A DNA stretch of 64,000 bases. Origin: Sphagnum compactum. Lineage: Eukaryota. Shown one piece after another: positions 386 through 53,600 of this stretch. The stretch covers positions 9,796,001 to 9,860,000 of the forward strand of contig OZ234494.1 in NCBI GenBank assembly GCA_965153455.1. The letters run 5' to 3'. How positions within the stretch are numbered: the stretch's first letter is position 1; each line of letters opens with the position of its first letter. The position numbers were made by a program, and so were the translations under genes. The notes beneath the pieces are model-generated. The model made no database searches. It was given only the letters and a program-made list of their open reading frames with translations, and was not told where the DNA came from.

Positions 386-420
386 AGTTGTGTGCAATTA
401 CAACTACTACAATTATTCTT

Positions 421-545
421 GAACCTTGTGCATTAAATGCTGAGTTTCAGCATTTCATACCCAGATTTAATAAAATTTCCTTACATTGCGGATAACACTG
501 AAAGAGGGGATAGGGGGCGAAAGCAGTGGAGATACGGGGTGAAAC
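421..545 (+). repeat. Dispersed repeat; second copy at ~39331-39455
   Basis: Near-identical aaccttgtgcatYaaatgctgagtttSagcatttcatac..agatttaataaaatttccttacat...cactgaaagaggggat at both loci. Confidence 0.8.
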
Positions 546-1486
546 AGAGGTCGACTTTCTGGATAACTCTATTGGATAAAATTCAACCTATCCTCACACT
601 ATACATCATCTAATCAAGACTCTCTCTCCATTGTTCAAGATTTCATGTTAAAGGGTGAGGATGGGGAAATTACTTACTATTTTGGATGTGGTAGACACTA
701 GTAGAAGCTTGCATACAAGGTATGGGTGGATTTGCTATTTTGAAGGCTTTCCGTAGGTTCACAATTTTGTGCATATAATGAAGAGAACATGTTTCAGGTG
801 TAAGTTCTAATTCCCACCAAGACATCAGAAATTGGCTGGTCAATGTTGCTTCAAAAATGGGCTTTTCTTTGTTTCTAAAAGTATAGCATCAGAAGCGAAG
901 GCCTAGCAACAATTTTTTTAGTTTTGTGCCACTTCCACAAGCCTGTCCTTCAACATTCAGATTGGGTCTCAAATCTGCACTAAAATCTTGGTTGACAATA
1001 GAGTGTCTCTGCCAAGCAGGAGCGAATTACCAACCTGAATAAGAAAACAATTGATGACTCCCATACTGGAGTCGGAATTTCTCTATGACTTAGCAGTGCA
1101 GGCAGATCTGTACACAAAACAATCCCGTGGTAGCCAACCCAGCCAGAAAGTGGGTACACTTGCACCTTGGCATGATGTTTGTTGAGCATGATTTGGCACC
1201 GCACAAGCTTCTAAACATTTGTGTTACTCTGAAAATCAGTCAAAAGAGTAAGCACTTATGGTCAATCCCAATGTGAAATCTCACAACAATTCCGCTTCTA
1301 AATGTGTAGCCAAAGATTGCCAAGGTAATGACCAAGGCACACGTCAGCAGTTCTCACCTATTGAACTTCTCTCCTGCTACCTAGTACAAAATGCTACAAC
1401 AGCCTTCTCGTTTAGTTCATCCTTTTAACCCTGCACTTCAATTTTTGTTAAACATCTGCAACCAAGGTCTTCAGATGCCCTGTACT

Positions 1487-2088
1487 TCAATTAAGTTGAT
1501 CACTGGCAACCAGGTCTTCAACATAATCGTACAACACTTGATCATACAATTTCTTGAGCCGTTCCAAGGCTCGCTCCTTGTCCTTCTCTGGTGCTGTTTC
1601 CAGTTGAAAGTGTGCTGCAATGAATTGTTGAAACCCAGAAGCAGCATCAAACTGCCAAAAAAAATTCACTTATAGCATCAATGTCTGGTCCATATCTTTC
1701 TCCATTCGCATCCAATCCCAGACCTTTTTCTGATTGAAGGAAAGTATGGAAAAACTGGTAATTGAAGATTTGCATCACCATGCAAGGAAACTGTACAGTG
1801 ACAAACATATTCCAACCCATTTTGACTGCCAGCAAGATGTATACACCCATATAACTAGTGAATTACCTGGGCTCGACCACCAGCTTCAAAAGCTAACTTT
1901 GCCAAGTTACAAAGATCCACTTTATGGCCAACCACCTGAGGTTTCCCAGTTGGTACTGGCTTGCCTTTGGCTCGCAAATAGTCATATACTGTCTTCACTG
2001 TGAATCTCTGGTCCTCCACAGGCGGCGCTCCTGCCACTTCATAAGAGTTTTCCCACATTATTTGGACTACCACCTTCAGAACCATCAT
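1487..2088 (-). CDS. ARID/BRIGHT DNA-binding domain ORF (2 exons, 128 aa if initiated at 2088, or a C-terminal extension of the oxygenase)
   Basis: Exons 2088-1867 and 1651-1487 are joined by a 215-nt phase-0 intron (CAG|GTAATT ... TTTTTTTTGGCAG|). The product FTVKTVYDYLRAKGKPVPTGKPQVVGHKVDLCNLAKLAFEAGGRAQ|FDAASGFQQFIAAHFQL...ALERLKKLYDQVLYDY fits the ARID consensus (G.P...P.I.G..lDL..L...V...GG...W..iA..l...L+..Y...L..Y). Confidence 0.72.
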
Positions 2089-4507
2089 GATTGCCTATTC
2101 AGGCATCAAAGTCCCACAAACTATCAAAAGCAGGAAATAAAACAAACCACCAATTCCTAATTATCAGTATAGCTTGTTCAGTTGCTCAACTCTTGTCATG
2201 ATAGCTAATCAGTAAGAAAGTGAGAAAGTGCATGAATTCACCCCTTCCCCTGACATCATTTCTCAGCCTACATGAGAACATGACACAGGTATTGGGTAAT
2301 ATTACTGAACAGCCCAGAAATCCTCCCACCCCAACTTATTTTCAACTATGGAAGAGTTCAGGGTCTTACAAGCATGCTGTGCTTGTTGTGCTTGGCCTGC
2401 CTCCACTGACCCGATCTCTCCATCCTGTGCAGCTGTCCAGCCAGGCTCGTATGCTTCTAGAAATGCCTGTTTGGCTTTGTTGGGCAGATCATGGGGGTGA
2501 ACAAAAGGAACACCTTGGGGCCAACCCATCTCTGCCCTCATTATTGCACATGGGCTGTCAGTTGCACTGAGGTGGTGCTCTTCACATTCCTTCAAATTGC
2601 AGTACCGTACTTTGAGGCCTTTGCTATCTGCAATCTCCTGGACCCGCTCCTTGAGAACTCGTTGGGCTTCAAGCCTCAACCGCTTTGATGGAGCCAGTGG
2701 CTTTCCTCGGGAGACTTGTTTTCGCCGCTTCATTGCAGATTTGATTGCTCCTACAGCAGGAACAAAAACTAGTGAACAATGTTCAGTCAAGGGCATGCAT
2801 CTTACAAGGGATGCTACATAGCAATACAGGTAGAGCTAACTGTCAAAGACAACAAAATGACATCAGATGTTGAAAAAAGTTCAGAGGAAATCCCCAGCCA
2901 AAGTGAGATCACCAAGAATAATTACTTGCGCCCCATGTCATCATCCTCTATGCAGTCTTGCAGAGCACATGACAGTTAGACAAGTTCAGTTTCAGTTGAC
3001 CTCAGTTCAACACCATCAATCCCTCTTCCAACCTCCTAAGCCTCTGTCTTCTCTCTCTTCCTGAAAGCAAGTTGAGAATGGGAGGGACCCACCATCAGAT
3101 GGTGTTGGAAATGTGAGCATAGGAACACCTGGCCGGCTTGCAAGCTGGTCCATTGGATGGGACCTCTGCATGAAATCATGGACAGCAACAGGTTGTTGGA
3201 AGGGACTTGCGACAGGATGTCCTGCAGCTGTCATGGCAGAGCAATGTAAAATGGCTGAGGCTCGTGGCATAAGCTTGAACTCTATAGAGCAACGACCATA
3301 TGGGCTAGAGCCTTGCCCTTGTCTGGCATTGTTGTCCATTCGATGAACTGCAGGAGGAAGATAGCCTCCAGTTGCTTGATAGAGGGACAGTCCTGAGTAC
3401 AATACCATGTCTTGCGGACCCAGCTCAGCATCTACAATGATCCAGTGTCCTTGAAGATCTCGAATTTGGAGGCCAGGCTTATCTGATTTGTGTAGGGTTA
3501 ATAGTCCCTTGTCTGCATCCTCCTCAAAGAGAGGCACACTGCCTTGCTCACCTTCAAGAGGTACAACCGTGTGCTGTGCCCCTGGTCTGCCAAAACATGA
3601 GGTAGTCATATTTCAATACAGATTTGAAGATCTAACTAGTGCAGGCATGATCATGACCTTGCTGCATATCACCTCTCTTAATCAAGGCCTTGAAACTGTC
3701 ACCCTTAATGCTCACTGACAGCCTATTGAGCTCAAACTATTCCCATTCATTTCTTCAATCTTGATTGAAAACTCAGAACTTATTTTCATAACTCTCACTA
3801 CAGAGATGAAACCAGACATCCAGACAAATCCTAACCATCAGGATCGGTACCCATGTAGGACCTTATATTGAACTTCAACCATGCAACTCAGTGCAGCATC
3901 AACAAATAAACACCTTGCAGTCTTCAAAGGACAAACACTTCTGCTCTTCTTACCTATTGTGGCAACAAGTTGACAGCACGGAAGTTGATGTCTCTCCAGT
4001 TTTTAGTGGCACATTATCTAACAGATCTGTAAACGAGAAACTTCGAAGCTCCAGTGAGCAAGCAATGGCATCCAGGATGATGCGAGTTGCCTTCCCCAGC
4101 ACAGCAAAAAGCTCGGACAATCCTGCCGGTGGCAAGTTTGAGACATGGGTCCCAGGCCCTTCAGAAGGAGTTCGCCCTGGGCGGTAGTCATACACCTCTC
4201 TAGCATGCTGACTTTCTGCATAGTAACCTACTGTCCGATTCCAATCTTGAGAGTCTTCTGTGTGTATAGACTCTGGCCCTACCATTGGTTTCTGATGGAA
4301 GAACATCCGCACCGAGTCTAGTACACAACGCAGCAGGACATCATCTCCCGGGGGCAACTGAATGATGGCAGCATTTGAATTCCTCAGAGACTGTGCGAGT
4401 GTTATGACAGCATGCTTGTAAGCATCAGAGGGAAGTCCATCGGCAGCAACCAAGTCCATCAGCCTCACACGAGCTGGGGATGTAATGGCTGCTACCATTG
4501 CGCCCAT
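2039..4507 (-). CDS. Plant 2-oxoglutarate/Fe(II) oxygenase-fold protein (IPNS-like, uncharacterised plant family; resembles the Arabidopsis At3g12940/At3g19895 type), ~494 aa
   Basis: Hand-spliced exons 4507-3954, 3586-3093, 2750-2370, 2094-2039, all GT-AG and phase-compatible (554+494+381+56=1485 nt). Motifs: RVRLMDLVAADGLPSDAYK, DKGLLTLHKSDKPGLQIRD, PAVHR, RCSIEF, and the conserved C-terminal block KPLAPSKRLRLEAQRVLKERVQ...GWPQGVPFVHPHDLPNKAK...YEPGW. The last acceptor is ambiguous (2120, 2094 or 2066). Family assignment is from recall of motifs. Confidence 0.85.
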
Positions 4508-6279
4508 GCACTATATCCTTCGTGGGTGAGTTTTTTGGGGGTGTCTATATATCTATTACTCCAAGAAAAGCTCCCGTGATTGATGCATGTAGAACTGCAA
4601 CTCCTTGACAGCTCAGCAAGGTTTCTATGTAGTCTACACAGATTTGAAAATTCACCCACTTCTTGCAATAAACAGAAGTTACCCTTACAAGCACAGTGAC
4701 AGTCCCCTTCTTCTCTTTCAGTTTCAGACTAAGTCTAGCTCACTGGAACAGATCTGAAGCTCCATTGCAATCCAATCCTAGACCTAAACTAGAAAGCATC
4801 AAAACACTCAGGAAGACAATAGTGCAGTAAATGCTTGAGTGCTTTGTCATCCGTTGTCGAGCCAAACATATCCTTACTTGAGATCCTGTAGTAATGATTC
4901 TTCCACATTCAGTTCTGTAGAATTGTTTGCTGCTAACCCATGGCCAGACCAGTTATTCCTGGCTGTCCTCCTCTTGGTGACCTAACCTTGTACATCTTGA
5001 CTGTATCCGGGCATGCACCACCACTGTAACTACTGCTTCTGGAGAAAAGTATGAACTTGTCTCTTTGCATTTGAGCTTGAAAAAATACCTCCCCTGAGAA
5101 ACAAGGAATTCCCTTCCGGCACCAGAAAACCTTCATACTCGGACTTGGCACTTTGTAACAGTAGTATTCTACTTGTTTTCTCTACTTGCAACTTCCCAGG
5201 ACCCCGTCTGGAAGAAGAACTGATCCGTGCAGGCCATCATCCCATGCTGCTTCAGGAGTGCCTCTGTCTCTGTCCATCTCTCTCTCCCCCTCTCACAACC
5301 TCTCTGCATGCTGTCTAGTACGGTCGTTGCAGCTCCTGGCACCAGCTGCAAGCATTCGAGAGCATTTCAATTCGGTCCAAGCCAGTGTAGTAGAGTTGTC
5401 ACGGATGGGTGCTGCTCAGCTCATCATAGCACACAGAAGAAAATACGAGCGTTGTTGATCGTCAAAAGAAAAACATCATTCCTCTTTCCATCCTGCATGG
5501 GTTCGCCTAATCTCATGATGTTTTACATTAGTGACTTGACCAGATCTCCATTGCCTCTATAAACCAATCCAGGGCTTTAACACAAGAAGCTGCAGAGGGA
5601 AATGGACGTGATGGCAGTGGCAATGAAGGCGGGTCTGATCAACAAAAGAGATGGTCCGCCTTGCTCGTCAACCTCAAAAACCGCACTCCTCAAATATCCG
5701 CTGTTTACCCACCAGCTTCACCCACCAGGCTTCAGTTTCTTCTCCGAGCTCCAAACAGGAGTCCAACAATATCCAAGCAGCACCACACACACACACACAC
5801 AGACCCACCCAGCTTTTCTCTGTGATCTGTCAGCTAAAAACCGAAACCAAAACTCACCGACTAGAAAAACCCAAAACCAGAACTCCCCGACAGAACCACC
5901 CACAAACCCAGTCTCGTATCTCCTCTTTTCCCCAGCCTGCTCACTCCATCACCTTCACTCTCTACTACTACTAGTAGTTCAAAACCCACAACAGTCCATA
6001 CAGCTGCTCCCAAAACAAAGTTCCAAAACTCAGACTTCGGGCCTCAAAAACCCACACACACACACAACAACAACAACAACAACAACAACAAAAAACACAC
6101 ACCAGTCTAGTTTCCCACGTCAAAGTTTCTCCCACCACAAACCTCCAGAACAAAAACCAAAGCAACGACAGCAGGTAGTCGGCAGTGCACAGACAGTAGT
6201 TTCCGAACCCTCCCCCATCCTCTCCTTTACTACTCCCCCTGGGTCCTTTCCCAAACCCCCCCCGGCTCGCTCCACCCCA

Positions 6280-6850
6280 CCTACATGACGACTGGACAAG
6301 AGAACACACTCGCACTCTGGTGTCTCTCGCTCGCCGCAGGTAGGTATCGTTCTCTCTCGCGAGCGCTCTCTCTCTCTCTCTCTCTCCCTGTCCTGTTGCT
6401 GCTTGGCTTGACTGCAAAACCCCCGCAGCGCTTGCAACGAAAACCTTCGGTACCACGGAGAACTGGAGACTCCCGCCTTTGGGCCGCCCGCCAGCCTGCC
6501 CGGGCCCGCAACCAGCACCAAAGTTTGCCACGATGCGTGGCCCGGGCTTTTTTTTTTTGGTAGCTTAGCGCGCGATGGCGGGCAGTGCACGCGGCCTTGG
6601 CCGGGGCGGGCTCAGTCAGTCAGTCGGTCAGTCAGTCTCTTCTGTCTGCCTGTCTGTCTGTCAGTCAGCTGCGGTCAACCGGAACTAACCCGCTGCCCGT
6701 CCACGTGCCGGTAAATGCCAGCCGCTATTTACCGGACCTGGCTCTAGGTCCGGCAAATGGCTGCAGCAGCCTCGTTTCAGGTTCGGAACCGAATCTAGGT
6801 GTCTCGTATCTTCGCACCCACGCACGAACGAACGAACGAACGAGCGAACG
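6280..6850 (-). promoter_or_regulatory. GC/CpG-rich promoter and likely first non-coding exon of the oxygenase gene
   Basis: Abrupt GC-rich island with a (GA)n tract on the minus strand, ~1.8-2.3 kb upstream of the ATG at 4507. It borders AT-rich repeats from ~6860. Confidence 0.5.
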
Positions 6851-6884
6851 AAGCTCCCATTTTGTTCCCATCACTAAACTTTCA

Positions 6885-7275
6885 TGAATTTAAGTTCCCA
6901 TTAAATTGAGGTATTTCTCTTTTTATTTCATGTTTCACATTAAATTCATGTATTTCACTTTTCATTTCAAGTTTTACATTAAATTGATGTTTCAAGTTTC
7001 ACATTAACTTGATGAATTTGACATTTTCAATCAAGTTTTCTATTCAATTTATGTATTTGACTTATTTTTATCAATTTTTACATCCATCGAATTGATGATT
7101 CTGACCTTTTTATACCAAGTTTTACATTAAATTGATGTTTTTGACTTTTTTATTTCAACTTTTACTACATGAAATGAATGATTTTTAATTTTAATTTCTA
7201 GTTTGTACATGAAATTGATGGATTTGACATTTTTATTTCAAGTTTTACAATTAAATCTAGGTATTTGACTTTAAT
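6885..7275. repeat. Degenerate AT-rich tandem repeat, ~40-bp unit
   Basis: Recurrent tttcaagttttacattaaattgatg(ta)tttgacttttt motif, roughly 9-10 degenerate copies. Confidence 0.65.
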
Positions 7276-23399: not shown

Positions 23400-26200
23400 T
23401 ATGTTGTTCTTTTTTTAAACTTCAGATTCCATGTATTTATAAGGTTTGAGCTTATTCACATTGACCAACACAGGGTTAGTTTCAAACTTCTCAATGGTCA
23501 CCAATAACATAATGTTATTTAGCAACACATACTGTACTTTGTATGGTCAAAACCATTTCCTAGTAAACTTCCTTAGGTGTGATTTATTGCCTTTTGGAAA
23601 CTATAAAAAATAATCACCAAAACTAAACTATTTTTCCAAATTCTTTTGTCGATTCCATAATGCTTATTCCACTATTGAAATCCTGCAGTTTTTATAACTT
23701 GCATTCTAGCTTCTTGCAACTTCTCGAGCTCTATAATTTTGTTAGTTAAAACCTTCACTGGAATATTTGTTTTTCTCATTTCCATTAGCAACTATAACGA
23801 TGTACTATGTGGGCATTAATGGATGTAATCCATACACTAATTGATATGGTGTATACCCTGTTGCTACTTTGTATGCAATTCTGTATGAAAATAACACTAT
23901 AGACAGATGTTCATCCTAATATGTTCTATTTTCACTAACTTGGTCACCAATGTCCCTAGTACCTTGTTAGTAGACTCAACCTGCCCATTCACCTAAAGAT
24001 ATTAAGTTATAAAACTCACATGCTTCAATAAAAAATGATTTGTCAAATACTTGATGGCATCATTAACGAAATGAATTCCTTGATCTGTGATTGTAGTCAA
24101 AGGACATCCAAACCTGGTTAATAGGCACTCATATAGAAATTTTGTTGTGACTATTGTTATATTAGTTTTCAATGCTCTTGCTTCTGCCCACTTAGTAGCA
24201 TAATCTATGGCAACAATAATATATTTGTTCCATGTATATCTTCTTGTTGGCTTAATTGGCCCCACAAAATCAAATCCCCATTTCATAAATGGTTCTTCTG
24301 GAAGACTTGTGACCAGCTTTGCAAGAATTTGAGTTACCAATTCTCCTGTTCTTGTATAATCATGCATGTCCCTGTACATAGTTGGCCACCAATATCCAGC
24401 ATCCAATATCTTCTTCTGCGTTATTTCAATTGCAAAATGCCTTCCTTAAGGTCCTTCATGTAATTCTTTCATCACCATATGTGTTTCTGTTGTTGTTAAA
24501 CATCGTTGCAATCTATTGTTTTGGCCCATTTTGTACAATTCACCATTCTTTATTGTAAAAGGTTTTGCTCTCCTAACCAATCTCTACTTCTGCTACACCA
24601 ATAACGTGCCCTCAAGCTATCTTGTTTTCAAAAATTCTTTTACATCATTTAACCATTCAGGCCTTATATAAAACAAACTTGCATCTATGGTTTGATTAGG
24701 CACACATGTGGGTTCTATCATATCCAATAATCTTGATAATGCATTTGCAATTACATGAGTTCTACTTGGTTTATACACTATTGTGAAATCATATTTAAGG
24801 AACAATAACAACCATCTAGTTATTATCCTTGAAACTTGTGATTTGTTGACCAAATAGACTAATGCCATATGATTTACATAAAAAACAAACTTATTGCCTA
24901 ATAAATAATGTCTGAACTTGTGCAAAGAAAAAAAGTTACTAAAGCTTCTTTCTATGTTGTGCTATAATTTTGTTCTGCTTTGTTTCGAAGCCTAGAAACA
25001 TACATTATTGGTTGCATCTCTCTCCCTATTACGTTCTAAGACAACATAGCCCCCATAGTTAACAAGGACACATCTATATGAACATGAAATTTCACCTGCT
25101 AATTTGGTGATATTAATATCGGTGCTTCAATATACTTCTGTTTAATTAATCCCTAGGCCTTCTAACATTCCTCTATCCAAAGAATTTTTTTTGTATTTTT
25201 GGTCAGTTTAGTGGTAAGTGCCATAATAGCAACAAAGTTTTTTATAAAATATCTATAAAACTATGCCATCCCATTGAATAATTGAATTTGCTGGGGATTC
25301 TTAGGTGGTGGCATGTTTACTATTGCATGTATTTTCTTTGGATCTAGTAGTTTCCCTTCTTTGGAAATAATAAAACCCAAGATCATCCCTGAAAATACCA
25401 TAAATGCACATTTGTCTAGATTCAAACTAATGCCATATTCTCTGCAATTTTGAAAACATAGTCTAAGCTTTTGCAAATGATTCTCCATGTCACTATACAC
25501 CGTAAAGTCATCCAGAAATATCTTCATAAAATTGTTCAAATACTTTCTTAATGTTTTGGTCACAACTCTCTAATATGTTGGAGGTCCATTTTAAACTCCA
25601 AACGGCATCACCTTCCATATAAAAGTCCCCCAGTCTATAACAAATGTAGTTTTATATCTATCCTCTGGAACTATAAATATTTGATGATATCCTAAATATC
25701 CATCTAAAAAATAATATGCCTCATACCCCGCCATTGTGTTCAGCACTTTATTTATGAAAGGTAATGGGTATGGATCCTTCTTTGTGGCTGCATTTAATTT
25801 TCTAAAATTTATATAGATTCTCAACTTCCCATTTTTCTTGGATACTATTGCTATGGGTGACAACCAGGTAGCTTCTTCTACAAATTCAATGAATCCAACT
25901 ACTAACAATTTATCTATATCTTGTTTGATTATTGTAACATAATTTGGATTTAATCTGTACATGGCCTGATGTGTCGGTGGTATAGTCATGTCCAACTCAA
26001 TTCTGTGTTGTGTTAGCTATGATGGAATCCCTTTTAGATCTTTGTATGTCCATGCAAAAACATCTTTGAATTCCTTCAACAACTGCTCCACTTCCAACAC
26101 CTTGCCTGTTTCTAACTATGCATTAATCTTCACCATTTGTGGTTATACATCAGTTCCCAAATTGAACTTCATCAAATATTGATCTTTAATTAACATCCAT
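23400..26200 (-). pseudogene. Gypsy pol (RT-RNaseH-integrase), interrupted by stops and frameshifts
   Basis: ORF-track fragments 25591-25995, 25261-25563, 24617-24925 and 24002-24406. Confidence 0.9.
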
Positions 26201-50200: not shown

Positions 50201-50650
50201 TGCAATTCGAAATTGTATTCTAGTGTCGTCCTTCATGAATTAGCAATGGAGATTTCGCAACAAGAAGCGAAGAAGAAGAAGAAGAAGAATAAGACGAAGA
50301 AGAACCAAGTCCTCTAGTGGAATTTTGGGATTCTCGGAGTCGGACGAATGACATGCGGCATGATGACACTACTGAATTGTTGTTGCAGCAACTGTTGTTG
50401 ATCACAAGATTCTGCGACAGTTTTACCATCGGAGACGAGCTCGGAACGTCCTTGAGTATCATCATCGCCTGCTGAGAAACAAAGCCTTCAAGGATCCAGA
50501 GGAAGAAAAACTCAAGCAATGCAGGTGCATTCAAATCTCTCTCTCTCTCGAGCTCTGCTTTCCTCAATGTTCTCCAGGACTTCAGTCAGTCTTGTAGTGT
50601 TCTTGTACAGCAAACTGTTTGGCACGAAGAAGTTGTTCTTCGCGCAAAAC

Positions 50651-53600
50651 ATGGAGAAGCTCCTTGTGGGTGGAAGTGGATTTGCTTGGATGGCTGCTCT
50701 TGTGCAACTGAATTCTTTGCAAGTGTGTGAATTCCGTCCTAAACTTGTGATTGCACAGAAATTATTGTTTCCTGCTCTGCCGCAAGGATCGTCGGCGGTT
50801 GTTTTTGGCCGCGCTATTTCTGCACAAACACCAGCCTGCAATTCACAATGCTACCGCAACAGCAGCAGCAACTACGACTTCTCCCCCATCTTGCAGCAGC
50901 AAAAGGGTGCAGCAAAAGGAAGAATGCGGCCACAGAAGCTCTTGAGCATGCAGCTTCATCTTCTTGGCACCCAATGTTGTGCATCTTGTGAATCCTCCTC
51001 ACGCTCCTTAAGCTACAGAAGAAGTATCTTCAATGGACGATACGGACAATTTCCCGGGACACATTCTGCAACAATTCTTCCCCGAGAAGTAGGAGAAATG
51101 ATTCAACAAAGAAGCAAGCAATTCGCACAAGTTCGAAGAGTTAAGTGCTCAGCTACTGTAGATGGTCGAAGTCCATTGGAACAAAACTGGCAACAATCAG
51201 AAACCAGCATCAGAGAAGAGAAATGGTCCCAATCTCAAGGTTCTGAGCTTCCTCCTCCTTCTCCTCCTCCTCCTCAATTTGCAGCAGGAGCAGCCATCTT
51301 GAAGGAGCTTCACCAAAGACTTCCCTCATATGCAACAGATTTTGCAGATGGACTGCATCCCAAAGCTGCTGCTGCAATTGTTTACATGACCTTTGCATGT
51401 TTAGCACCATGTTTTGCCTTTGGCGGGTCAGTTCAATCTCTTCTTCTTCTTCTTCTTCAGAAACAATGCTCTTGATAGGCTAAGTTTACCTCAGATTCTT
51501 GAGCCAACAAAGTTCTGCTGTACATAAGCTTGCATGTCAATCTTCTGTGACCATGTCTTTGTTCACAACTGCAAGCTAGATCAATTTCTGTGACAACAAT
51601 TGTGAATATTGAGTCTTACATCACGGATCATGCAAGGCTCTGTACAGAGAATTCATCACATGATTTCAAGTCTTGATTCTTGGTGTTCTCTTTGTCTTCT
51701 TCCACATTTATTGCTATTGAAAGCTAAATTTCAAATGTTTTCTCAACAAGGTTTTGATCCAGATTCCACTGTGGGAAACTTGTAAATGTCACAGGATGAT
51801 AGCACGTCTCACTGAATGTCAAATGGGACTTGTGGAGACAATCATCAGCTGTTCAGGTGCATAGTCTCTCTTTCTAGAATTGCAGGCTCAGGAAGATGAT
51901 GAAGAGAAACTGATAACCAAGTGAACACTTTGTACTCAAAACAAATCATTAACTTCCCCATAAAGTCCAAGGAAGAAAACAGAGTTTCATACCAGAAGAA
52001 AGAGATGGGTGGGAAGAAGAATGGAAACACTGATAATGATGTACATGTAAGCAGGAGCAAAGTCTCCAAGGTTCAAAAGGAACATTTTGAATGTTGTTCT
52101 GTTTTCTGATCCATGCAGTATCAGGAAGCTTGTACTCACTGCTAGCTGCACAGCCACTCACTCTGCTTGGACCAACTGGGTTCATGGTTGTCATCACTGG
52201 TCTGCTTTACAAGGTACTCAATTGTCAGTGTGATTATGGAAGAGGAATGGAAAGTCAGGACTGCACATTTAGGTTTAGGGTTTGGAGTTTATCTTCTTGA
52301 TAAGACTTATCAGGAGTGTACTATCACATTGCTAATTTTTGCTTGAACGTGTGTGTGTGTGTGTGTGTGTGTGTATGTATTTAGGTGACAACGCAGGCTA
52401 TGGTGCCATTTCTTCCTGTCTATGGTTGGGTGGGCATTTGGACATGCTTCTTTCTTTCCTGTTTGGCAGCAGTGGAGGCCAGCAATGTGGTGAGATATAT
52501 ATACTCTAATCCTTGTTGAACATTTTGTGCAATTCATCATTTTTTTGTTGTATCTGACAGAACTTTGGTCTTAGAGCATTTGATTTACATGATTGCTGGT
52601 GAATTTTCAAGAATGTGAAAGTTCCTGAAGTCTGTGCTTCTTTGCAGCTTGTGAACTATTTGACTCGGTTTGTGGATGAGACATTTACGGCATTTATCTC
52701 TATTGGCTTCATGTCTGAAGCTTTTAAGGTAAAATTTCCAGAAGTGCAGGTTGAATCAGCTTCACCATCTTTGTCAATAGCTCACAAGGTTCAAAAGATT
52801 TGCTTACATGCAATTTTGATTGCATGCTGCAAACTATGAATTGGGTTAATCATGTAGCAATTTTTGTTGCAGGGAATAGGAAATTTATTCAAGCCCGCAA
52901 GCCCTTTTCCGATAGAGACTGCCTTGTTGTCGTTTCTTCTAGCAGGAGGAACATTCACTCTGGCAAAACTTCTAACTCAGGTCACTAACGCCCCCACCTT
53001 ACTTGTACAACTTTGACTGCATCTTCAAGTCTATCTGATAGTGCCAATCAAGTCATTACTCTTGAGTTCAGAGCTTGTGCCACTTACTCTTTTGGAAAGT
53101 CTGGCTATGGAGGTTTTTAGTCTTGCCTTCTTTTTGTGAACCAAAAACCTCTATTTTGAAAAAGACTGCAGCTACGAGCGACACGCGTGCTACTGCTACA
53201 GCCTGTTGCGGGAGTACTTGCAGATTTTGGAGCACCCTTGGCCATTCTAACAATGTCAATGGTGGGTCCAATCCTCTTCCCAATGATTCCCTTGCCAGCA
53301 ATGCCAGCTCCACCAACTATCTCCACAACTGTCAGTCGCCCATGGCTGGTACCGCTTTTCAGCCTTCCAGGATGGGCAGTTGCTGCATCTGCCATTCCAG
53401 CAGCTTTTGTCAGTCTTTTGATCTTTCTTGATCAGGTAAAGAAAACTCTTAGATTTCTTGGGTGATAAAGTTCCTTATGCTAAATTGGGTTTCCACACAA
53501 CATTGATCCTGATGAATGCAAAACTGTACATTCAGACACAAACTTGGAGATCATGCTCTGAATGTTTTAGCTTTGAGACATTTGGTGCAATTTTGCCAAC

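Follow-up and report, generated by a model that had tools for sequence, protein, structure and literature searches.

Proteins that carry both a 2-oxoglutarate (2OG) oxygenase-type fold and an ARID domain in one chain are represented by the KDM5/JARID1 demethylases. The IPNS-like 2OG dioxygenases, which include thymine-7-hydroxylase (T7H) and the plant DOXC enzymes, form a second group to be considered here, and T7H acts on free bases. The gene described below lies in a stretch of 64,000 nucleotides (nt) of the 382-Mb genome of Sphagnum compactum (GCA_965153455.1, contig OZ234494.1, positions 9,796,001 to 9,860,000), which is called the window throughout. It is read from the minus strand, from the ATG at 4507 to the TGA at 1489-1487, and all of its exons and introns are given in window positions on that strand. 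Like KDM5/JARID1, its longest product joins an oxygenase-type fold to an ARID domain; unlike these proteins, it has an oxygenase of the IPNS type, a C-terminal ARID, a degenerate iron triad and no JmjN, JmjC or PHD domain by Pfam. It resembles the IPNS-like dioxygenases in its fold (Z 25.1 to T7H and 21-24 to many others) and in keeping the Arg-x-Ser (RxS) motif, whereas its first iron-ligand His is replaced, its identity to them is 12-20%, and a basic stretch, a Cys/His domain and the ARID are appended. An earlier note, made by a model from the letters of the window, had proposed that the choice of acceptor, or a single TAG, decides between a stand-alone enzyme and an oxygenase-ARID fusion. 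On balance, the gene product is probably a nuclear regulator that binds DNA, in which the oxygenase module is probably dead and the presence of the ARID is controlled by splicing.

Evidence on splicing comes from 4 of the 22 listed RNA runs (X1, X2, X10 and X11), in the form of contigs from close relatives rather than raw reads of this accession. X10 and X11 gave near-identical numbers and were treated as one data set. The 90% likeness filter admits paralogue contigs, and one of these passed in X2. In all four runs, the donor at 2369 is joined to position 2036, which yields an in-frame oxygenase-ARID fusion of 587 residues, and the same joint (2370/2036) is found in the orthologue transcripts L028 and L031. 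The intron removed in this way (intron 3, 2037..2369) is 333 nt long, begins with GT, ends with AG and lies in phase 1. Furthermore, this main acceptor is used in five of five spliced moss contigs, which represent two orthologues, two paralogues and one other moss. Metagenome searches returned 27 loci, of which 20, the five spliced contigs among them, are moss copies and seven, with weak 18-residue matches (L034-L040), were dropped. Within the S. compactum genome, three copies carry both exon 3 and the ARID exon (contigs C1, C2 and C3). That the fusion is real can be regarded as close to certain.

Five coding exons build the fusion. Exon 1 (3954..4507) begins at the ATG and encodes the N-terminal half of the IPNS/T7H-like domain, with the joint 3954/3586 present in all four runs. 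The core of the oxygenase fold is encoded by exon 2 (3093..3586), and exon 3 (2370..2750) supplies a basic cluster and the Cys/His domain. Exon 4 from the main acceptor (1867..2036) contains a linker and the N-terminal half of the ARID, as delimited by the RNA joints, Pfam and the spliced orthologues, and exon 5 (1487..1651) contains the C-terminal half and the stop codon, as delimited by the RNA joints, Pfam and structure alignment. Intron 4 (1652..1866, 215 nt), which interrupts the ARID, is spliced in all four runs, as the earlier note had expected; an unspliced contig in X10/X11 may be pre-mRNA. Retention of this intron would leave half of the ARID in a protein of 536 residues; the Physcomitrium annotation includes isoforms of a similar kind.

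A second acceptor is located six bases further on. Its AG occupies 2032-2031 and the exon resumes at 2030 (2030..2032), where the last T of exon 3 and the following GA build a TGA stop codon across the joint that ends the protein at 476 residues without the ARID. The choice of acceptor thus does decide between an ARID-less protein and the fusion, at 2036 and 2030 rather than at the sites that had been put forward. The joint from 2369 to 2030 was recovered in two of the four runs (X1 and X2), with rough contig depths of 33.7 versus 61 for the 2036 joint in X1 and 27.7 versus 32.6 in X2, and represents about one third to one half of the junction depth where present. In X1, a contig with no differing letters has its first base at exactly 2030; this suggests that the sequence comes from the gene itself, with two paths meeting at that position. 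It is very likely that the second acceptor is real for this gene. The stop that it creates precedes the last exon joint by 162 nt, well over 50 nt, and an early stop well upstream of an exon joint triggers nonsense-mediated decay. Although the short mRNA may therefore be degraded, the large proportion of the 2030 joint in two runs suggests that decay is escaped at least in part.

The end of intron 3 is poor in pyrimidines (8 of the last 20 nt at the main acceptor, versus 16 of 20 at position 2120), and 25 AGs are present between 2330 and 1985. Its last 33 nt (2037..2069), which include a branch-point-like TAAT at 2060-2057, are identical at 30-31 positions among the three paralogues, compared with 15-29 for the other three introns, and at 24-27 positions with another moss (L032). 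Also, the three paralogues, L032 and the spliced contig L033 all keep the tandem AG together with the GGA codon by which the stop is completed. This pattern suggests a conserved weak acceptor that permits two outcomes, and exon-start constraints could explain part of the conservation in this region. One S. troendelagicum gene model (P0135) splices to an acceptor at 2066, and a longer isoform of a similar kind is present in Physcomitrium (P0190), but the AG is absent from both paralogues and from L032; the 2066 product may be a minor form.

The C-terminal domain is an ARID under purifying selection. When tested against Pfam, the spliced 587-residue orthologue P0141, which differs by six residues, matched PF01388 with 29.2 bits (cut-off 24.1, E 1.3e-6), in agreement with the assignment made from the letters. 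Exon 4 alone remained below the cut-off (18.8 bits, E=0.0023), and several other homologues fell slightly under it (19.7-23.8 bits). In the AlphaFold model of P0141, which has a mean predicted local distance difference test (pLDDT) score of 79.7, residues 475-584 align to the BAF250b ARID (2cxy) with Z 10.2 and a root-mean-square deviation (rmsd) of 2.5 over 96 aligned residues, and four further ARID-containing structures match at Z 9.2-9.5. The KDM5A ARID aligns to residues 482-584 with Z 9.5 and rmsd 3.0 (93 aligned). Comparison of the ARID exons among the three paralogues, a check that had been suggested earlier, gave ratios of nonsynonymous to synonymous substitution rates of 0.08-0.15 over 109 codons. 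A phmmer search with the ARID against the PDB found no ARID, and a DRAT match on exon 5 in Pfam was set aside as a chance match.

Residues 6-327 adopt the IPNS-type fold, a double-stranded beta-helix, and Pfam finds no JmjC domain, which agrees with the earlier description of this module as IPNS-like rather than JmjC. The top match in both fold searches is Neurospora T7H (5c3p), with a Foldseek E of 4.9e-14 and a VIA Z of 25.1 (rmsd 3.6, 283 aligned); the next-best VIA match has Z 23.6. Pfam detected nothing besides the ARID in P0141, and hence no JmjN, JmjC, PHD or C5HC2, no PHD or C5HC2 in eight homologues and no match at all for exons 1-3 alone. In the window protein, the iron motif reads D208-A-D210...H266, in the register of an alignment to 3on7, with D208-x-D210 (3519-3511) replacing His-x-Asp, H266 at 3345-3343 and R283-x-S285 at 3294-3286. 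Among 105 homologues, the first ligand position most often holds Gln (66 proteins), followed by Asp (15) and His (13); 75 of the homologues retain the distal His and 104 the acidic residue at position 210 (Asp or Glu). An intact His-x-Asp/Glu...His triad is found in 8 of the 105, and three of these are from liverworts, where the Calypogeia, Riccia and Marchantia proteins keep H-x-E...H. The 2OG-binding Arg-x-Ser/Thr motif is retained almost throughout (R283 in 102/105, S/T285 in 104/105). Such a pattern would fit a pseudo-enzyme that possibly still binds 2OG or another ligand, and classical catalysis is probably absent in Sphagnum, to judge from these residues. The presence of Asp instead of His as the first iron ligand casts doubt on the DNA-targeted oxygenase that the earlier note had raised.

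The most conserved part of the protein is the Cys/His domain of exon 3 (residues ~368-454, 2697-2437). The basic cluster of this exon (~2733-2671) is a putative nuclear localization signal. In the Cys/His domain, C400, C405 and C417 are present in all 105 homologues and H409 in 103, and the domain is probably zinc-binding. It belongs to no Pfam family, and profile searches against the PDB and Pfam returned no relatives. The model of this domain has a pLDDT of 75.9. Ranked first or near first in the fold searches were weak matches with GTF2I repeats (Z 4.3 and 3.6), EIN3 (3.8) and NRF1 (3.0), all below reliable levels; no match with Z of at least 5 was found among 48,161 chains, which does not show that the fold is new. 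Foldseek likewise gave no match at E <=0.001, with matches of the GTF2I/EIN3/NRF1 type at E above 6. One of two Atlas queries succeeded. With an oak homologue as the query, GTF2I was carried by 11-13% of the members of the nearest clusters (0.86 and 0.84 in score) and Nrf1 scored 0.77, whereas residues 362-460 of P0141 gave no usable match. Unlike GTF2I, EIN3 and NRF1, the present protein family has Cys/His ligands peculiar to itself and no profile match to these proteins, and the resemblance should be treated as a set of leads.

The Cys/His domain also occurs with other partners. A search with it gave 38 matches; of those fetched, three (P0231, P0239 and P0234) looked unrelated or doubtful, and P0234 was kept as a distant member. 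Two transcriptome proteins (P0224 and P0242) have the Cys/His domain and the ARID without the oxygenase. In Selaginella LOC9652532 (P0236) and in a gene on contig C19 of the S. compactum genome, a ZF-HD dimerisation domain is followed by the Cys/His domain. The C19 gene is found at 815200-817260 (L041:2219-4255, minus strand) and is 50-69% identical to the Selaginella protein. ZF-HD proteins carry a homeodomain after the dimerisation domain, and the two proteins just described share that dimerisation domain and have the Cys/His domain in the place of the homeodomain; Pfam detected no homeodomain in LOC9652532. Proteins of this kind possibly make up an undescribed third class beside ZF-HD and MIF.

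Judging from predicted proteins, the fusion spans mosses, liverworts, a lycophyte and zygnematophyte algae. Full fusions were found in four Sphagnum species, Physcomitrium, Ceratodon, Marchantia, Riccia, Calypogeia, Diphasiastrum, Closterium and a record labelled Mesen1. The survey covered the best 120 of 255 homologue matches, among which an ARID profile built from 7 of the 12 carriers matched those 12 and no named seed plant. This accords with the earlier remark that angiosperm homologues are not known to bear an ARID, and none was found. ARID-bearing and joint-ending forms stand side by side, as gene models or transcripts, in Physcomitrium (two genes, P0017/P0176 and P0191/P0189), Diphasiastrum (P0295/P0294) and Psilotum (P0262/P0025), where the longer transcript, P0262, carries a frameshifted and decayed ARID remnant. 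Proteins from Ginkgo, Welwitschia, Magnolia and Juglans terminate at the same residue as the joint. With the end of the protein measured from an AYEPGW-type motif, the Sphagnum stop form ends 28 residues after it, and so do 18 of 109 further homologues; 8 end after 29 residues and 16 after 30, and the remaining 67 end elsewhere or lack such a motif. Pairs of Welwitschia and Juglans proteins that differ by a final Cys or Cys-Asn suggest that the same T|GT donor survives there. In seed plants, the short form alone seems to have survived, and the loss of their ARID through fixation of the stop form is slightly favored over other routes, although the order of ARID loss, read from protein ends, is hypothetical. 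At3g12940 and At3g19895 are candidate orthologues in Arabidopsis.

The fusion is already in databases and is not a hidden-gene discovery. The Sphagnum models KAH9570926.1 (S. magellanicum), from which the 587-residue fusion differs by six residues, and KAH8970104.1 (S. fallax), the UniRef entries named 'ARID domain-containing protein' from S. troendelagicum and S. jensenii, and Marchantia MPTK1_6g01030 all belong to the same gene or family, under automatic names only. Of the possibility that the fusion is constitutive and already annotated, which had been raised at the outset, the annotation is thus borne out in four Sphagnum species and the constitutive splicing is not. Literature searches at the level of listings and abstract openings, in a collection with few subscription papers, turned up nothing that describes the fusion, its splice switch or the domain of exon 3, and the passages of PMC12142463 and PMC9170682 that were located by word search do not mention this protein.

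Several other accounts of the transcripts must be considered when evaluating the two-acceptor arrangement. The fusion might be the sole functional product, with the 2030 joint arising when splicing slips at a weak tandem acceptor, or serving just as a route to decay, and without accumulation of a short protein in moss. A position of the stop 162 nt before the last exon joint is what this account would lead one to expect, as is the lack of the 2030 joint in X10/X11 and in five of five long spliced contigs, and the second AG could stem from Ala/Thr-Gly codons. Nevertheless, the account is rather unlikely given that the 2030 joint reaches about a third to half of the junction depth where seen, that three paralogues and two other mosses retain the third-position bases it requires, and that gene models from Sphagnum to Ginkgo repeatedly show proteins that stop at this joint. 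It is very improbable that an ARID microprotein of 118 residues is made separately, from the ATG at 2058 on an intron-retaining or internally started mRNA. Of the start codons listed in the earlier note, neither 2088 nor 2085 is present in the two paralogues, and 2058 is kept in three of three paralogues and at the same place in Physcomitrium (P0194); database open reading frames of such a form with intron 4 spliced also exist (P0303 and P0194). In L032, however, a TAG directly follows this ATG, which indicates that the conservation is of RNA (TAAT-G, branch-point-like). Furthermore, no Met codon lies in the ARID frame of the 2030 mRNA, and partly spliced pre-mRNA would yield the open reading frames in question. 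Practically no weight can be given to the model of the earlier note, in which either 2120 is used and the TAG at 2097 is read through, or 2094 is used. The note's description of the letters is accurate with regard to the phase-1 donor GT at 2369, the AGs before 2120, 2094 and 2066 and the tails that follow from them, the in-frame TAG at 2097-2095, the 128-residue open reading frame from the ATG at 2088 and the basic cluster of exon 3. The tract at 2120 enters the ARID frame and is tied for the best with 2204 rather than being the best outright, and the TAG is kept in the close orthologues L014-L016. Joints to 2120, 2094 and 2066 were nonetheless found in none of the four runs and in neither of the two spliced orthologue transcripts; contigs lose rare variants, and minor use of these sites may occur. 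The three AGs, the TAG and the ATGs at 2088, 2085 and 2058 are within intron 3, the TAG being intronic in all joints seen and out of the ARID frame in both paralogues, and an extra base after the 2120 AG in L015 and L016 shifts the frame. A variant in which the AG equivalent to 2094, which is in frame in both paralogues, is the true acceptor and the window copy is frameshifted was also tried, and was rejected because the RNA joints place this stretch in the intron.

With regard to function, the oxygenase might be an active dioxygenase that is brought to chromatin by the ARID and the Cys/His domain and that oxidizes a nucleobase or a chromatin mark, as TET, T7H or KDM5 do, without belonging to these families. 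The rank of T7H at the top of both fold searches, the retention of R283 (102/105) and of D/E210 (104/105) and the liverwort H-x-E...H speak for catalysis, but it is unlikely in view of the Asp at the first His position of the window protein, a distal His kept in 75/105, and a lead of T7H over other IPNS-type enzymes that is small, at 15% identity. We favor a nuclear DNA-binding regulator over a catalyst, and hold DNA binding to be the likeliest role because of the basic stretch, the domain partners and the weak fold leads; the prospect that the protein is such a regulator is reasonably good. Under the favored reading, this would be an old streptophyte protein of three modules, namely an IPNS/T7H fold with a degenerate metal site, a basic stretch with the Cys/His domain, and a C-terminal ARID. 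The basic stretch would direct nuclear import, and the Cys/His domain and the ARID would contact DNA. The oxygenase module would be mostly non-catalytic and might act as a small-molecule sensor or a scaffold. The weak, conserved end of intron 3 would set the amount of the ARID-bearing form, and the second acceptor would tune it by way of the short protein or of nonsense-mediated decay of the short mRNA.

Certain observations must be counted against the nuclear-regulator reading. Fold comparison gives the Cys/His domain weak matches (best Z 4.3, rmsd 5.1 over 74 residues; Atlas score 0.86). X10 and X11 lack the 2030 joint, all of the runs represent relatives and not this accession, and the joint in X2 could include paralogue reads. 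Retention of RxS/T in about 102-104 of 105 homologues and of a full triad in three liverwort proteins means that some members may be active. The absence of the ARID from seed plants is a result for predicted proteins among the best 120 of 255 matches, the origin of short forms elsewhere from the same second AG is read from protein ends, and the gene-model isoforms may be annotation noise. A broader version of the nuclear-regulator reading can be offered tentatively: these proteins might form an undescribed family of streptophyte transcription regulators, in which a ligand-sensing, dead T7H-like pocket is linked to a new zinc-containing member of the GTF2I/EIN3/NRF1 class and to an ARID, the presence of the ARID having been governed by the same splice switch since the split of mosses and vascular plants, with seed plants having fixed the ARID-less isoform. 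If this were true, seed-plant orthologues that are filed as metabolic oxygenases would be DNA-binding regulators.

Other features of the locus deserve mention. The mRNA has a long unspliced 5' leader (4508..6086), across which the alignments of L028 and L031 run uninterrupted by introns, from 6086/6060 to 3954. In these orthologue transcripts, the leader is ~1.56-1.59 kb long and contains 27-30 upstream ATGs, which suggests translational control; the paralogues and another moss have long leaders too, of 0.9-1.1 kb with 14-21 upstream ATGs. Broken copies of the gene with in-frame stops are found on C1 near 10.385 Mb and on C10 near 9.867 Mb (L010, L011 and L012). Intron 2 has a second acceptor 18 nt upstream (2751-2768) that adds six residues in one S. 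troendelagicum model, and similar inserts are seen in Physcomitrium proteins and in P0012. At 2167/2168, intron 3 is longer in relatives by ~993 bases, part of which matches the C1 paralogue at 69%; these bases were either lost in this genome or fall in an assembly gap. Additional open frames in the window include one of 235 codons antisense to the leader (5581-6285, plus strand), two at 24005-26016 (minus strand), which resemble retrotransposon pol remnants, and one of 339 codons at 50456-51472 (plus strand). Rfam gave no match in positions 400-7000 of the window.

Three aspects of this gene are apparently unreported in the literature covered. One is a two-acceptor switch that builds a stop codon across the splice joint. 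Also, the loss of a domain can be traced, as mosses and a lycophyte have both forms, a Psilotum transcript carries an ARID in decay, and the short form alone was found in seed plants. Likewise, a near-invariant Cys/His domain moves among oxygenase, ARID and ZF-HD partners. If this domain binds DNA, a conserved plant gene that is labelled '2OG oxygenase' needs a new function.

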